Positions 28,142-34,932 of a DNA stretch of 34,932 nucleotides are shown piece by piece; position 1 is the first letter of the stretch, and each line of letters begins with the position of its first letter. The translations under genes and the position numbers were made by a program. Where the stretch lies: the sequence record SRR2962707_5101. One strand, given 5' to 3'. The notes under the pieces were generated by a model that was not told the DNA's origin, did no database searches, and saw only the letters and a program-made list of their open reading frames with translations.

Positions 28142-28287
28142 GCTCTTCTGATCAGCTTTACATATTGGCTCTGTATACCGGAGGTCTTTTCTGGGATAAT
28201 GCCGGAAAATTCCCCCGATAACCTATGTATCTTCGTAACGCACATTTCGTGATGTCATCGTGGTTACGTCGATACCAAGAGCTGCCA

Positions 28288-30564
28288 ATGATAAAACGAC
28301 ATAAAACCGCCACCGATCTATTCTCATATCCAACGTATTGGGCTGAATGTTACGGTGTTTCCCCTTTTTTGCCGACCACCCGAGAAGAAATGGACCAGCT
28401 TGGCTGGGACAGCTGTGATGTGATTATTGTCACTGGGGATGCCTATGTGGATCACCCAAGTTTTGGTATGGCCGTGTTGGGGCGTTTATTAGAGTCTAAA
28501 GGCTATCGTGTCGGCATTATTGATCAACCAGATTGGCGTAATGCCAATGATTTCATGCGCTTGGGTCGTCCTAATTTGTATTTTGGGGTAACGGCGGGGA
28601 ACATGGATTCCTTGATTAACCGTTATACCGCAGACCTTAAAGTGCGTAACGACGACGCTTACACACCTTATGGTGTGGGGGGCAAACGTCCAGATCGCGC
28701 TGTCATTGTTTATTCTCAACGTTGTAAAGAAGCCTTCCATGACGTGCCTGTGATGGTCGGTGGTATTGAAGCGAGTTTGCGTCGTATTGCTCAGTATGAC
28801 TATTGGAGCGATGAAGTTCGACGTTCGGTTTTGATAGACTCCACCGCCGATATTTTACTTTATGGTAATGCGGAACGCGCCATGCTGGAAGTTACTCATC
28901 AAATCGCGATGGGTAAAACGATCAAAGAATTAACCAATATTCGTGGCACCACCATTGTTCGAGATGCACCGCCAGGTGGTTACACAGAAATTGACTCAAC
29001 CCGAGTAGATTGGCCTGGCAAGGTCGACCAAATATACAGCCCTTACGAATACATTCCTGAAGGCAAATGCCAGACAAAAGAGGGCGAAGAAGACTCTGAT
29101 GTCATGCCTATTCGAGTGATTCCTGCGCCATTACGTCGCGGTGAGAAACTGGACCCTGAAACCACTTATATTCGCTTGCCTTCGTTTGAAAAGGTCTCTA
29201 AAGACCCTGTTTTGTATGCGCATACTTCACGTATTTTGCACCTGGAATCTAACCCGCATAATGCGCGAGCTTTGATTCAAAAACATGGTAAAAAAGAGAT
29301 TTGGGTTAATCCGCCACCAATTCCATTGGAAACACCGGAAATGGATGGTGTCTTTGATCTGCCTTATGCGCGTGTGCCACATCCAAAATACAAAAAAGCG
29401 CGTATTCCTGCCTACGACATGATCAAAACGTCGATTAATATTATGCGAGGCTGTTTTGGTGGCTGTACTTTTTGTTCGATTACCGAGCACGAAGGGCGGG
29501 TTATTCAGAGTCGTTCCCATGAATCTATCTTAAATGAGATAGAAGAAATCAAAGCTAAGGTGCCAGGCTTTACCGGTCATATTTCTGACTTAGGTGGTCC
29601 TACCTCGAATATGTATACTCTGAACTGTAACGACGATGAGGTTCAGGCTTCTTGTCGTAAGTTATCCTGTGTGTATCCTACGATTTGCTCTAACTTAAAT
29701 ACGGACCATAGCCCAACCACCCAGCTATACCGTAAAACGCGTGCCGTAGAAGGGATTCATACCGTTTCTATTGCCTCAGGTCTACGCTATGACCTAGCGG
29801 TTGAAGACCCTGAGTACGTACGTGAGTTGGTGACGCATCACGTTGGTGGTTTGTTAAAAATTGCCCCAGAGCACTCTGAAAAAGACACCTTGTCTAAAAT
29901 GATGAAGCCGGGCATGGGCACCTACGAGCGTTTCAAGCGGATGTTTGATAAATACTCTAAAGAAGCGGGCAAAAAACAGCATTTGATTCCGTACTTTATT
30001 GCGGCTCACCCGGGCAGTTCAGATGAAGACATGATGAATTTGGCTTTGTGGTTGAAAACCAATGATTTCAAACCGGATCAGGTACAAACCTTTTACCCTT
30101 CACCTATGTCGTTGGCGACGGCCATGTACCATTCTGGTAAGAACCCATTGAAACCGGTGACTTATAAGAGTGAAGACGTTTATACGCCGAAAGACTATAA
30201 ACAGCGCACCGTACAAAAAGGCTTTTTACGCTACCACGACCAGAACAACTGGAAAGATTTGCGTAATACCTTGATCAAAATGGGACGCGCAGATTTGATC
30301 GGTAATGGCGACAATAAGTTGGTGCCATCGGAAGACAAAGACAAACAAGTGTCGCGTCGTCCAGTGAAGCCAAAAGCAGGGCAGCAGACCGGGGCTTCTC
30401 ATACCTCGAATCGTCCAACAATGGCGAAGAATGCGGCGGCGGATAAAGCGCGTAAAAAGTCTGGTAAAGCGGGAGGCAGTGCGTCCTCTCGAGCAGGGGG
30501 CGCGCCAACAAACGCTGCTGCAGTTCCCGCTAAACGTCGTAAATCCAAGGTTAAATCTCGCTAA
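28288..30564 (+). CDS. ygiQ: YgiQ-family (UPF0313) radical SAM protein
   Basis: [55 protein letters not shown]; basic low-complexity C-tail; ATG 28288 preferred. Confidence 0.95.
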
Positions 30565-30587: not shown

Positions 30588-30623
30588 AAAACCTCGTAGT
30601 GCTCGGTCATTACGAGGTTTTTT
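30588..30623 (+). terminator. Intrinsic terminator after ygiQ
   Basis: AAAACCTCGTAGTG-CTCGGT-CATTACGAGGTTTTTT. Confidence 0.85.
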
Positions 30624-30750
30624 ATTGTCTGAAATGCACTGATAGTGAGCGTGTAAAAGGTAAAAAGTCATAAAGCGAGCACAGTGGATGATAAACACTC
30701 CAGTTTATGGATAATACAGTCCATCAAATTTGGTATGTGTTATGCATACG

Positions 30751-30860
30751 TTGCAGAAACGCTGGGTTACTATTTAATCTGCGTTAACCGCTTCCACAAG
30801 AAGCGAACGACAGCTATTCCGTCATTAATCAAAAGTTAATGCGGGCATTGAGGACTTATT
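30751..30860 (+). promoter_or_regulatory. Candidate promoter plus structured 5' leader of the YitT gene
   Basis: TTGCAG-N16-TTTAAT; hairpins CGCTTC-CACAA-GAAGCG (30789-30805) and CCGTCATTAAT-CAAAA-GTTAATGCGG (30819-30844) immediately before the GAGGA RBS. Confidence 0.45.
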
Positions 30861-31460
30861 ATGAACGTAACACACCGTTGGCTTTCTATTTTTGAAGGCT
30901 GTGTATTGGTTGCTTTAGGCATACACATTCTGAACTCAGCCGGTCTACTGATTAGTGGCACTGCTGGAATCGGTATGATACTGAGACAGCTAACCGACCT
31001 TTCTTTTGGGCAGTTATTCTTTTTGCTCAACATCCCTTTTTATCTGCTTGCTTGGCGTACTTTAGGTCGAGACTTTACCGTTAACACCTTTATCAGTATT
31101 AGCTTGTTGTCGATTTTCTCTGAGTTAATGAAACACTTTGTTTCGATTGATATGAACCCTATTTTATCGGGTACCTTAGGGGGATTATTGGTGGGTTTTG
31201 GGCTCATTATTTTATTCCGACATAACGCCTCTTTAGGTGGGTTGAATATTCTCTCTGTGTATTTAGAGCGCCGCCATGGGATTCATGCCAGCAAGACCAC
31301 CTTAGTGGCTGACTTATTGGTTTTTGCGGTGGCGATAGTGACATTAAAAGCGGAAAGCATAGGCTACTCTTTGCTTGCCTTTGCTTTTTTAAGTTCAGTG
31401 GTAGGGCGCTACCATCGACCACCCAAATGGGCGCACGCCAAAGAAATCAAAGCGGCTTAA
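30861..31460 (+). CDS. YitT-family (DUF161) membrane protein
   Basis: GLLISGTAG, FGQLFFLLNIPFY, LFRHNASLGGLNIL, YHRP; GAGGA RBS. Confidence 0.9.
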   Translation: MNVTHRWLSIFEGCVLVALGIHILNSAGLLISGTAGIGMILRQLTDLSFGQLFFLLNIPFYLLAWRTLGRDFTVNTFISISLLSIFSELMKHFVSIDMNPILSGTLGGLLVGFGLIILFRHNASLGGLNILSVYLERRHGIHASKTTLVADLLVFAVAIVTLKAESIGYSLLAFAFLSSVVGRYHRPPKWAHAKEIKAA

Positions 31461-31570: not shown

Positions 31571-32710
31571 TTAATGTGAATGCTGATGAGAATGGCCTTT
31601 GTTCATTTTCATCATCATCTGCTTCGTTAATGAAACAACCATGAGAAACGCAAGAATGACGCCGGTTGATAGGGTAACCCAACTAGGCAATAGCGTGAGC
31701 TCAGGACCAATTTGAGGCACCACTGAAATATCAAATTTAGTCACCAGAAAATCGACTAAAAAACCGAACAATAACGCACCGCCTAATACCCCTGTTAAAT
31801 ACCCTACTAAGGCTTTCTTGCCTAACTCTTTTGCGACAACACCTAAGGTGGCAATGTTGGTAGCAGGCCCTGCCATCATAAAAACGAGGACGGGTCCTGG
31901 TGCCACACCGGCTAATAAAAGACCCGCTGCGATGGGGGTCGATGCGGTCGCACAGATATACATGGGGATGGATATCAGCACCATAACAAGCATGGCCAAT
32001 AAGCCATTCCCCCATGATGCTAGAAAGTCACTAGGAATGTAGGTTTGCACTAGGGCCGCAAACCCCAAACCAACCAATAACCAAAGGGCGGTATCGTCTA
32101 ATAGCTCTGTGGCAGCATAGTGAAGGCTTGAACGAATTTTAGCCGTGATGCTTGCAGACTTTACTGACGCATCATTTGTTGAGCAGCAGGACGCTTCAGC
32201 TGTGCTGGTTGTGCCGCAGCACGATGGCTCTGCGGGTGTGCTGGTAGCACAGCACGAGCTCGCTTCCTTGGCATTCACTTGCGTTGCCGACTTTGTATTA
32301 GGGACGCCATCATCGTCATCTCGGCCCACCAATAACCCTGCCAGAATGGCACTAAAAACGGCGGCGATAGGGCGAATAATGGCCATAAAAGGCCCTAGTA
32401 AAACGTAGGATACGGTAATGGAGTCGACCCCAGTTTCAGGCGTGGACACCAAAAAAGACGTGGTAGATGCTTTGGAAGCGCCCGCACGGCGTAAGCCCAC
32501 CGCGGCGGGAATAACACCACAAGAGCACAGTGGCAATGGTGCGCCAAAGACGGCGGCTTTAACAACGGATTTTAGGCCGTGTCCACCGAGTTGCTTGTTC
32601 ATCCAGCTCATTGGAACAAACACCTTGAGCAGGCCGGCCAAGATGAACCCTAGGAGTAGCCAGGGAGCAGATTCCAAAAAAAGTTCCGCAAAATGAGTTA
32701 AGAAGGCCAT
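31571..32710 (-). CDS. SO_0444-type Cu/Zn efflux permease (DUF318/ArsP family)
   Basis: ESAPWLLLG, GAPLPLCSCGVIP, STPETGVDS, PMYICATASTP, GPATN; central Cys-Cys repeats; His-rich tail; ATG 32710 is 8 nt after AGGAG (alternative GTG 32719). Confidence 0.9.
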   Translation of the reverse strand: MAFLTHFAELFLESAPWLLLGFILAGLLKVFVPMSWMNKQLGGHGLKSVVKAAVFGAPLPLCSCGVIPAAVGLRRAGASKASTTSFLVSTPETGVDSITVSYVLLGPFMAIIRPIAAVFSAILAGLLVGRDDDDGVPNTKSATQVNAKEASSCCATSTPAEPSCCGTTSTAEASCCSTNDASVKSASITAKIRSSLHYAATELLDDTALWLLVGLGFAALVQTYIPSDFLASWGNGLLAMLVMVLISIPMYICATASTPIAAGLLLAGVAPGPVLVFMMAGPATNIATLGVVAKELGKKALVGYLTGVLGGALLFGFLVDFLVTKFDISVVPQIGPELTLLPSWVTLSTGVILAFLMVVSLTKQMMMKMNKGHSHQHSH

Positions 32711-32715
32711 GGTAT

Positions 32716-33159
32716 TCACTCCTTTAGACAGTGATGATGTTCTGGTTGAACGTTATGAACATCAGATTCCAGTGCTTCGAGTATGGTGCACTGAGCCGCG
32801 CTTCCAGGGCCGCCACAGCAGGCATCAGACAGCTGTTTTAATGATTGTTGGAAGTGGTTAAGTTCGGCGATTCTTCTTTCAACTTCTTCAAGTTTAGCAT
32901 CGACCACTATTTTGACATCGGCACAGGCGTTGTTGTCTTTATCGACCTCGATAGAAAGCAGCTCATGGATATCCGCTAAGCTAAAGCCAACGGTTTTGGC
33001 GCGAAGGATAAAAGACAATGTTTTTTTGTCTTGCTCGGTATACAGCCGATAGCCTGAATCAGAACGCTTTGATGGCGTTAATAGGCCATGCTTTTCATAA
33101 AATCTGAGCGTATCACTTTTTACCTTGAAGTCGTTTGCCAGCTCTCCAATACGGTACAT
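32716..33159 (-). CDS. zntR: Zn(II)-responsive MerR-family regulator ZntR
   Basis: MYRIGELA...DTLRFYEK, GYRLY, C.DVK, DACCGG....CTILEAL metal ligands; start at ATG 33159. Confidence 0.92.
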   Translation of the reverse strand: MYRIGELANDFKVKSDTLRFYEKHGLLTPSKRSDSGYRLYTEQDKKTLSFILRAKTVGFSLADIHELLSIEVDKDNNACADVKIVVDAKLEEVERRIAELNHFQQSLKQLSDACCGGPGSAAQCTILEALESDVHNVQPEHHHCLKE

Positions 33160-33189
33160 GCTTTTCTCTCTTGAATGATAGTTAAGACA

Positions 33190-33221
33190 AGTATAAACCT
33201 TGGATGTTAGTCCAAGGTCAA
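33190..33221 (-). promoter_or_regulatory. MerR/ZntR-type promoter-operator
   Basis: Minus strand TTGACC-N20-TATACT containing the palindrome ACCTTGGA-N6-TCCAAGGT. Confidence 0.9.
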
Positions 33222-33348
33222 GATTTTGGTGATGTATTCTGATGAGATTGAAGATAGAGGCTAAAGTAGGATAGAAATTCATAGTAAAACAAGGGTAGAC
33301 TCTAAGATGTTGTTTAAAAAACACACATTGGTGATTTTGTAACAGGTG

Positions 33349-33364
33349 TGGCACTCTATTTGAA
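33349..33364 (+). promoter_or_regulatory. Possible sigma-54 promoter (variant -12)
   Basis: TGGCAC-TCTAT-TTGAA, GG-N10-GA spacing, about 25 nt before the ATG at 33390. Confidence 0.4.
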
Positions 33365-33389
33365 CCAATTAAGGAAGGCATAACGGAGC

Positions 33390-34932
33390 ATGAAGCAAAT
33401 ACCCACAGTATTGATTGTCGATGACGTACCTGAGAATTTGCGGGTATTAAATGACGTTATCTCGGCATTAGACTGCCAGGTTGTCGTGGCCAATTCAGGA
33501 GAGCGTGCATTGGCTTTGTTGGAGCGAACTGAGCCTTGCCTTGTCCTTTTAGACGTTATGATGGGTGGGATTGATGGTTTTGAAACCTGCCGCCAAATAA
33601 GAGCCAATGCCAAGTTTAAAGATCTCCCTGTGGTGTTTGTTACCGCCTTAGTAGACGATATTAGTCGTGGCTTCGATGCGGGAGGAAACGATTACATAAC
33701 GAAGCCTATTCGTGTTGAAGAAGTACGCTCGCGTGTTGCTCATCAGTTGGAGCGTTTCAATTTGACGAATGAGCTAAAAGACTTGAACCTTATGTTGGAA
33801 GAAAAGGTTCGGGATCGCACCGCCGACTTAAATTTAGCCAATCGTCATTTACGCAAAGAAGTGAATGAGCGGCGCTATATGCAAGACCGCTTGAACTATC
33901 TTGCCCAGCATGACTTTGTCACTCAGCTTTATAATCGCGACGCATTAGACGAGCATATTACCCACCTTATTTCCGGTGTTCAGTCCAAAACGAACGCCCA
34001 CGTTCCTTACTTTGTGTTAATCGACATTAATGAGTTCCATCTGATTAATGATGCCTGTGGCTGTATAGCAGGCGATGAATTGTTGCATCAACTTGCCACT
34101 GTTATTAATGACTTATGCTCTCCCCAGCGAGATTTTTGTACGCGTTTGAGTGGCGATAAATTTGCCATCGCCGTTGGGCGAGGAGGCGCCGAAGCCGTTG
34201 AGTCGCTCTTCCGTATCATGAATCAGCGTATTGAAGACTTTGTTTTTGTTTGGGATGGTCGTCAATTTAGAACATCCCTGACGAAAATTGCGATCCCCAT
34301 TACCGTCGATATGGTGTCTTTTGAGCAAGTGATCATGTTGGCGGACGAAGTGAGTTACTCCTGCAAGAAAAGCGGTATTTATTCACGCATTGTGGAGAAC
34401 GCAGACGCCCTTGCTTATGAAGAGCGTAGAGGCAATTTGAATTGGGGGCTGCGTATTATTGATGGCCTTGAGAAAGATCTGTTTGAGGTGCATTTTCAGC
34501 AGCTGTTTCCACTGACAGAAACAAGGACGCTTGGCAAAAAAATTGAAATTCTAGTTCGTTTGAGAGACGAGAAAACGGGGAAACTGCTTTATCCGAATGA
34601 CTTTATTCGCGCAGCGGAGCGCTTTGGCATCATCTCCAAAATAGACCGTTGGGTCATCAGCCATACCATGCAACAGCTGGCAGAAAGGCCGCACCTATGG
34701 GAAGAAGTCAGCCAGGTGGCTCTGAATGTGTCTGCGTTGTCGGTTCGTGAAGCGGATTTTGCAGATTTTATTGTCGCACAACTGGAAAAATACCAGCTTG
34801 ATGGCCAGAAGTTTTGTTTTGAAATCACAGAAACTGAAGCGCTGAATAACTTTGTAGATACGCGTCACTTTATGTCTCTATTGCATGAGTGCGGCTGCAG
34901 TATTGCGCTGGATGATTTTGGAACGGGCTTTT
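33390..34932 (+). CDS. REC-coiled coil-GGDEF(degenerate)-EAL response regulator / c-di-GMP phosphodiesterase, 3' truncated by window end
   Basis: Manual translation: MKQIPTVLIVDD...LLDVMM...DYITKP (REC), HDFVTQLYNR...RLSGDKF (GGDEF-like), EILVR...FEITE...ALDDFGTGF (EAL); open to window end, absent from the ORF track because it has no stop. Confidence 0.93.
   Translation, partial: MKQIPTVLIVDDVPENLRVLNDVISALDCQVVVANSGERALALLERTEPCLVLLDVMMGGIDGFETCRQIRANAKFKDLPVVFVTALVDDISRGFDAGGNDYITKPIRVEEVRSRVAHQLERFNLTNELKDLNLMLEEKVRDRTADLNLANRHLRKEVNERRYMQDRLNYLAQHDFVTQLYNRDALDEHITHLISGVQSKTNAHVPYFVLIDINEFHLINDACGCIAGDELLHQLATVINDLCSPQRDFCTRLSGDKFAIAVGRGGAEAVESLFRIMNQRIEDFVFVWDGRQFRTSLTKIAIPITVDMVSFEQVIMLADEVSYSCKKSGIYSRIVENADALAYEERRGNLNWGLRIIDGLEKDLFEVHFQQLFPLTETRTLGKKIEILVRLRDEKTGKLLYPNDFIRAAERFGIISKIDRWVISHTMQQLAERPHLWEEVSQVALNVSALSVREADFADFIVAQLEKYQLDGQKFCFEITETEALNNFVDTRHFMSLLHECGCSIALDDFGTGF

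Follow-up and report, generated by a model that had tools for sequence, protein, structure and literature searches.

We analysed a 34,932-nucleotide stretch of DNA (record SRR2962707_5101; hereafter the window), which has 86% of its sampled words in common with the nearest genome compared, a member of the genus Marinomonas. The subject of this study is a yitT-family gene and the leader in front of it (Table 1). A preliminary description of the locus had called the gene YitT transporter-like, and a Pfam scan bears this out: the product matches YitT_membrane (PF02588) at 117.7 bits against a cut-off of 24.3 (E 6e-34), and the same scan found no C-terminal DUF2179 domain. NCBIfam offers no name more specific than YitT for the gene at 30861-31460, the N terminus of the product is kept from M1 across 13 orthologues, and the closest named locus, in M. 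pollencensis, encodes a protein of 93% identity. The literature searched contained no joint mention of YitT and a riboswitch, and nothing on the substrate or the RNA control of YitT; among the matches listed, the family's terms stood outside titles and abstracts.

Upstream of yitT lies a ygiQ-like radical-SAM gene, whose product carries a long tail rich in Lys, Arg, Ala and Ser past the DUF3362 domain (30300-30564). The intrinsic terminator that follows this gene is the upstream boundary of the yitT unit. On the other side, convergent with yitT, the minus strand at 31571-33381 encodes a permease of the ArsP_1 type that has a Cys-rich insert and ends in a His-rich tail. A MerR-family regulator precedes it, and the two look like a metal-responsive pair. 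A plus-strand ORF at 33390-34931 is open at the end of the window and, as read from its translation, begins like a response-regulator receiver and continues in a GGDEF/EAL-like manner.

Table 1. Features of the yitT locus, in positions of the window.
Feature	Position	Strand	Description
ygiQ-like radical-SAM gene	28225..30564		upstream of yitT; Radical_SAM_N, Radical_SAM and DUF3362 domains
Intrinsic terminator of the ygiQ-like gene	30588..30621	+	14-pair stem, then a T run
Candidate upstream activator site	30635..30651	+	TGCACT-N5-TGAGCG; weak; about 97 nt upstream of the -24 GG
Sigma-54-type -24/-12 promoter	30731..30746	+	TGGTATGTGTTATGCA; GG at 30732-33, GC at 30744-45
Predicted transcription start	30755..30759	+	about 12 nt past the -12 C; from promoter geometry
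P0	30758..30785	+	variable 5'-proximal hairpin, outside the conserved core
HP1	30789..30805	+	6-bp stem: CGCTTC (30789-30794), pentaloop CACAA (30795-30799), GAAGCG (30800-30805)
Linker	30806..30818	+	sequence variable
HP2	30819..30844	+	CCGTCATTAAT (30819-30829), pentaloop CAAAA (30830-30834), GTTAATGCGG (30835-30844); one-base bulge
Shine-Dalgarno sequence	30850..30854	+	GAGGA; 5 bases past HP2
yitT-family gene	30861..31460	+	199 aa, membrane domain only; ATG at 30861

The leader contains two hairpins, HP1 and HP2, which are present exactly where the preliminary description had placed them, and the short strings on which that description was built were all verified in the sequence (CCGC 30788-91, GCGG 30841-44, GAC 30809-11, GTC 30821-23, GCAGA 30753-57, TCTGC 30778-82, GCTG 30761-64, CAGC 30811-14 and TTGCAG-N16-TTTAAT). 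Leaders of relatives carry GGA-type motifs at the same alignment position as the GAGGA Shine-Dalgarno (SD) sequence. By itself, the source sequence does not fold beyond chance: the region 30753-30875 has a minimum free energy of -26.5 kcal/mol (z -1.30), equalled or bettered by 21 of 200 shuffles, and the hairpin signal emerges from comparison with relatives. The 5'-proximal hairpin P0 reaches -8.7 kcal/mol in the source sequence (z -3.2) and averages a z of -1.85 over 33 leaders, 13 of which fall below -2. Three Marinospirillum leaders, excluded from this count, have no space for P0, and the leader of Nitrincola lacisaponensis (L083) is without it.

Alignment with the leaders of orthologues established that the structure is conserved and covarying, in support of the structured leader described earlier. 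For 16 leaders, RNAalifold returned a consensus of exactly HP1 and HP2, with compensatory changes in 14 of 15 pairs. In this set 92.5% of cells were paired compared to 76.8% in column shuffles, none of 500 shuffles matched any of five measures, and pairing dropped to 36-41% when the partners were slid by 1-3 columns. A larger set of 49 distinct sequences, from about seven Oceanospirillales-type genera, gave 86.0% paired cells against 73.0% when shuffled (again with 0 of 500 shuffles as high on any measure) and 34-44% in slid controls. Here HP1 was paired in 96% of cells, with both-side changes in five of its six pairs, and HP2 had both-side changes at every inner pair. G.U cells numbered 104 and A.C cells 20, and pairing was 86.0% on the plus strand compared to 75.2% on the minus strand; the excess of G.U over A.C and the lower minus-strand pairing establish that the structure is an RNA of the mRNA strand and not a DNA palindrome.

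The stems vary around loops that hardly change. The HP1 loop columns of the 49 leaders read C (48/49), A (49/49), H (38 C, 9 A and 2 U), A (49/49) and A (49/49), followed by G (49/49), and those of HP2 read C (49/49), A (49/49), H (36 A, 7 C and 6 U), A (48/49) and A (49/49), followed by G (46/49). The two hairpins therefore have a common pentaloop, C-A-H-A-A, on a Y-G closing pair whose Y-5'/R-3' orientation is kept. Across the linker every column falls short of 70% conservation, and the loops lie 30-41 nt apart. Because conservation is confined to the loops and their closing pairs, direct read-out by a macromolecule is suggested.

Transcription of the leader would be driven by the sigma-54-type promoter. 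Of 52 sequences from the several genera, 48 have GG-N10-GC with matching flanks, in the form TGGTAYR-N4-WTGCW, and the other four lack it in a clean form. When scored against the sigma-54 consensus (TGGCACG-N4-TTGCW), 46 of the 48 reach 12-14 of 17 and two reach 10, compared to 7-13 for the reverse strand. This geometry places the predicted start near 30757, which would make the leader about 104 nt long. The HP1 loop follows the -12 C at a distance of 23 to 91 nt, which fits a transcript that includes both hairpins and in which P0 is optional; in Marinospirillum HP1 is predicted to lie at the very 5' end, as the -12 C is just 23 nt before its loop. The preliminary description had instead proposed a sigma-70 promoter, TTGCAG-N16-TTTAAT, with a start near 30785. 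This promoter was absent from our promoter scan, and the conserved sigma-54 promoter predicts the earlier position. The same description had also suggested an upstream pairing of GCAGA with TCTGC; on the predicted sigma-54 start, its GCAGA arm would lie at or before the first base of the transcript.

The candidate activator site upstream of the promoter has counterparts of the form TGCACY-N5-TKGSGCG at a like distance (about 95 nt) in the closest loci of Marinomonas, Nitrincola and Marinospirillum, which hints at an enhancer site and no more. A canonical NtrC site was rejected, the likeness being weak: the best match to the NtrC consensus averages 8.7 of 14 (shuffles, 7.9) and stays below 11 at every locus. 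The RNA library of a near relative yielded one contig, which may be DNA, that spans 30618-30913 and bridges promoter, leader and start codon. It begins 139 nt upstream of the predicted start, and contigs cannot show transcript starts; if it is RNA, some transcripts would have an earlier start or arise by read-through from ygiQ. This contig differs from the window at three hairpin positions (C-G to U.G, a bulge base, and U.G to U-A), and the fold is kept in all of them.

We searched genomes with a model of the two hairpins (R1) and with a broader version of it (R2). The sole R1 match in the whole window is the leader itself (30785-30846, 65.3 bits). Among 25 same-genus genomes, 17 carry the yitT orthologue (66-99% identity) and all 25 carry a paralogue at about 38%; R1 matched exactly once in each of the 17 orthologue-bearing genomes, in none of the eight without the orthologue, and at none of 13 paralogue loci. 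Of 64 genomes in the genus, 45 gave a single R1 match. The order sample (151 genomes) yielded two weak R1 matches, both away from YitT genes, and with R2 two Marinomonas matches and two weak ones, the latter again away from YitT genes; among these four weak matches one is terminator-like and one coding-like. In the class sample (151 genomes) R2 matched the nearest genome alone.

A scan of species-representative genomes gave 51 orthologue loci, from Marinomonas, Maribrevibacterium, Nitrincola, Marinobacterium, Marinospirillum, an Oceanospirillaceae MAG and a record titled Rhodanobacter aciditrophus. R1 matched over its full length at the leader in 46 of these 51 named loci, and the five R1-negative loci (Marinobacterium and the Oceanospirillaceae MAG) have the same two hairpins with a longer linker. 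The two hairpins stand directly 5' of the start codon in 51 of 51 loci, with the HP1 loop 61-71 nt and the HP2 loop 22-36 nt before the ATG. Between the end of the HP2 stem and the SD there are 0-12 nt, and in Marinobacterium the 3' arm of this stem overlaps the SD. Both loops fit YCAHAAR in 49 loci; the two exceptions, both MAGs, have a CAAGA loop in HP2 (L074) or a UAAAA loop in HP1 (L091). The preliminary description had suggested a survey of orthologues in Oceanospirillales, Vibrionales and Aeromonadales; the element was found across Oceanospirillales-type genera, and the query used returned no orthologues from Vibrionales or Aeromonadales. The element is strictly linked to one YitT orthologue group and is present in one copy per genome. 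The neighbours of yitT differ among the 17 loci examined, and at none of the 17 is there an RNA-binding protein gene or a conserved partner beside yitT.

At the loci examined, the gene, its promoter and its leader are found amid many different neighbourhoods, as if they had moved together. In some Marinomonas a GNAT acetyltransferase gene directly follows yitT (L040, 2177-2671; L057, 2230-2733; L102, 2101-2601), a possible clue to the YitT substrate; in L040 the GNAT start overlaps the yitT stop, making co-transcription of the two probable. L102 comes from the record titled Rhodanobacter aciditrophus JCM 30774 and shares its gene order with some Marinomonas loci: ygiQ stands before yitT, GNAT immediately after it (as in L040) and a fasciclin gene further on (as in L086). 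Its leader is typical of the Marinomonas type (R1, 41 bits), and the name of the record seems not to fit what it contains. A LysR-family regulator gene in one Marinomonas subclade (YeiE-like, under the NCBIfam cut-off) is divergent from yitT, at 364-1248 on the minus strand of L067, and a shared N-terminal reading frame places it in the same divergent position in L071, L072, L084, L087, L088 and L110. A xanthine (NMT1) riboswitch (39.5 bits, gathering score 36) lies at 2381-2452 of L081, a Marinobacterium MAG, just downstream of yitT and before an NMT1/THI5-like gene, and in L107, a Marinospirillum, positions 2205-2651 downstream of yitT match the cspA thermoregulator (88.1 bits).

Comparison to Rfam 15 found nothing at the gathering score in the whole window, nothing around the leader at E<=10, and, for the leaders at six loci in five genera, nothing at E<=1. 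These scans place the leader in no Rfam 15 family, in line with the earlier inability to assign it to one, and they dispose of its suggested likeness to the fluoride riboswitch (crcB, RF01734), which gave no match even at E<=10. Mutually exclusive pairings had also been proposed (CCGC with GCGG, GAC with GTC); they exist in the sequence and are not conserved, with 55.1% of cells paired compared to 51.4% when shuffled and 72 of 500 shuffles as high. Other routes to an intrinsic switch were tried and rejected. Duplexes between the linker, as an anti-SD, and the SD region had the same energies as those of shuffles (mean z 0.03, with 2 of 50 below -1.64). For a pseudoknot between a loop and the mRNA, such as with CUUGU complements near the SD or in early coding sequence, we found scattered 5-nt complements and none in 18 of 50 leaders, with CTTGT at -17 in one Marinomonas subclade alone. 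For sequestration of the SD, the ensemble gave a mean unpaired probability of 0.45 and an inconsistent pattern; both loops are predicted to be about 90% unpaired. A terminator scan found no terminator after HP2, which makes translation or stability the reasonable level of control. Hairpins with CAHAA loops numbered 12 in 262 kb of flanking sequence, a small and mostly coding sample in which 20 permuted loop patterns gave 8-34 with this count in mid-range.

Exposed, alike and invariant loops on freely varying stems near a ribosome-binding site are the signature of read-out in trans. The interpretation that we favour, if tentatively, is that the leader is a two-site post-transcriptional operator whose loops are read by a dimeric or two-domain RNA-binding protein. 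The yitT mRNA would start from the sigma-54 promoter near 30757, and its leader of about 104 nt would present, after the variable P0, the like CAHAA pentaloops of HP1 and HP2 at their spacing of 30-41 nt. A trans-acting factor encoded elsewhere in the genome would recognise both loops and, when bound at HP2 near or over the SD, would hinder 30S loading and so repress yitT, placing a gene-specific translational layer atop enhancer-dependent transcription. Here we infer translation as the level of control, repression as its direction, and the nature of the factor. A protein would suit the confinement of conservation to terminal loops and closing pairs, the two similar sites whose spacing varies little, and the precedent of two-hairpin leaders read by proteins. 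Against a protein stands the lack of a candidate, as there is no RNA-binding gene among the neighbours at the 17 loci and dedicated RNA-binding regulators are usually encoded next to their target. R1 and R2 pointed to no credible further target in the window, at the paralogue loci, in the 64 genomes of the genus or in the order and class samples, and the flanking sequence showed no enrichment of CAHAA-loop hairpins.

Several known systems offer parallels to such an operator; among the papers listed in a search on pentaloop and two-hairpin operators, none had this motif. In nitrate-assimilation operons, sigma-54 promoters are followed by leader hairpins that a protein reads. The E. coli thrS operator has two anticodon-arm-like hairpins upstream of the SD, which are bound by dimeric ThrRS in competition with the 30S subunit. 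The yitT leader likewise has two like-looped hairpins upstream of the SD, but the thrS operator is autoregulatory and mimics the 7-nt tRNA anticodon loop with its U33, whereas the yitT leader has a 5-nt loop (YCAHAAG if opened) with C at the place of U33, before a gene for a membrane protein. The boxB elements of lambdoid phages are GAAAA or GACAA pentaloops bound by N peptides. They too are A-rich pentaloops that a protein recognises, carried on short stems that covary; in the yitT leader the first loop base is C rather than G, there are two chromosomal copies, and no boxA is conserved across leaders. Targets of ANTAR proteins have hexaloops whose first base is A and whose fourth is G, unlike the five-base loops of the yitT leader, which have no G except at position 4 of the CAAGA loop of HP2 in L074. 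In ANTAR targets the second hairpin competes with a terminator or overlaps the start site; in the yitT leader no terminator overlaps or follows HP2, which ends 0-12 nt short of the SD, and the 17 loci have no ANTAR gene beside yitT. What the two share is the tandem-hairpin arrangement: targets such as those regulated by NasR/NasT or EutV are read by a protein at their loops, and the nitrate-assimilation examples follow sigma-54 promoters. One study reports leaders of two hairpins to which ANTAR proteins are recruited, with repression of translation (bioRxiv 10.1101/660928).

The main rival, which we favour only slightly less, is that the leader is a tandem-hairpin riboswitch of guanidine-II-like build, in which a small ligand would bind at or between the CAHAA loops and docking of HP1 with HP2 would alter ribosome access. 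The ligand would perhaps be the YitT substrate and possibly, given the sigma-54 setting, a nitrogen-rich compound. We hold at the same level of belief that this would be a new riboswitch class, in which minimal hairpins dock round the YitT substrate without Watson-Crick kissing, under sigma-54 and probably nitrogen-linked control. A self-contained element with this layout, serving one gene in one copy per genome and moving with yitT through at least six neighbourhoods with no conserved protein partner, is consistent with a riboswitch, as are an HP2 that abuts or overlaps the SD and the failure to see a wider regulon in the small, mostly coding sample of 262 kb of flanks. The guanidine-II class itself (mini-ykkC, RF01068) consists of two hairpins before the SD of a small membrane-transporter gene (PMC5558903), and it shares with the yitT leader tandem hairpins, the same loop twice, covarying stems, a variable linker and a place before the SD. 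In contrast to its ACGR tetraloops, the CAHAA pentaloops of the 49 sequences have no C-G with which to kiss, and loops of C, A and H leave no Watson-Crick contact of the guanidine-II kind. The gene is yitT rather than sugE/gdx or guanidine carboxylase, the hosts are a few related genera, and the guanidine-II Rfam model gave no score at the source leader even at E<=10. Arguing further against a riboswitch are the absence of any bulge, junction or pseudoknot that is conserved and might serve as a pocket, the absence of a conserved alternative fold, and the very narrow distribution in the order and class samples. A riboswitch coupled to a sigma-54 promoter would, to our knowledge, be unusual.

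We consider it less likely that the hairpins are a structural element without a dedicated regulator, acting in mRNA stability or processing or as a ribosome standby site or enhancer, or that their loops pair with an sRNA. A 5'-proximal hairpin is common in these leaders, HP1 of Marinospirillum lies at the predicted 5' end, and SD sequestration is inconsistent, all of which would suit a structural role. Hairpins that confer stability, however, need no given loop, and here four of the five loop bases hardly change, if at all, in either hairpin while the stems vary (n=49). Five-base loops are short for kissing between RNAs, and a conserved complement of the loops is absent from the downstream mRNA. 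That the leader is an unrecognised member of a known family (fluoride/crcB, guanidine-II or an ANTAR target) is effectively refuted: the loose likeness in layout noted earlier and the two-hairpin design speak for it, and the lack of any Rfam 15 match and loops of CAHAA rather than ACGR speak decisively against it. Palindromes read by proteins at the DNA level, or chance hairpins, are as good as refuted too, for although the single-sequence fold is not significant, the G.U excess (104 compared to 20 A.C), the lower minus-strand pairing, the covariation around fixed loops and the position kept relative to the ATG in 51 of 51 loci all contradict them.

Defining features of each family considered were tested and are lacking in the yitT leader, which places the element outside all of them. 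Its design resembles that of guanidine-II and ANTAR targets, with another loop code, another gene and few hosts, and its twin hairpins with barely changing loops mark it as a previously undescribed regulatory RNA. It would be a rare instance of a minimal operator of two hairpins that is neither guanidine-II nor an ANTAR target, and yitT would pair enhancer-dependent sigma-54 transcription with a second control step at the level of RNA. YitT/PF02588 proteins are widespread and orphan in substrate, and an RNA strictly tied to one orthologue group provides a direct experimental handle on them. If the leader were a riboswitch, the RNA would name the first substrate for this family. In either case the partner that binds the loops, whether ligand or protein, would report the signal that the YitT transporter answers.
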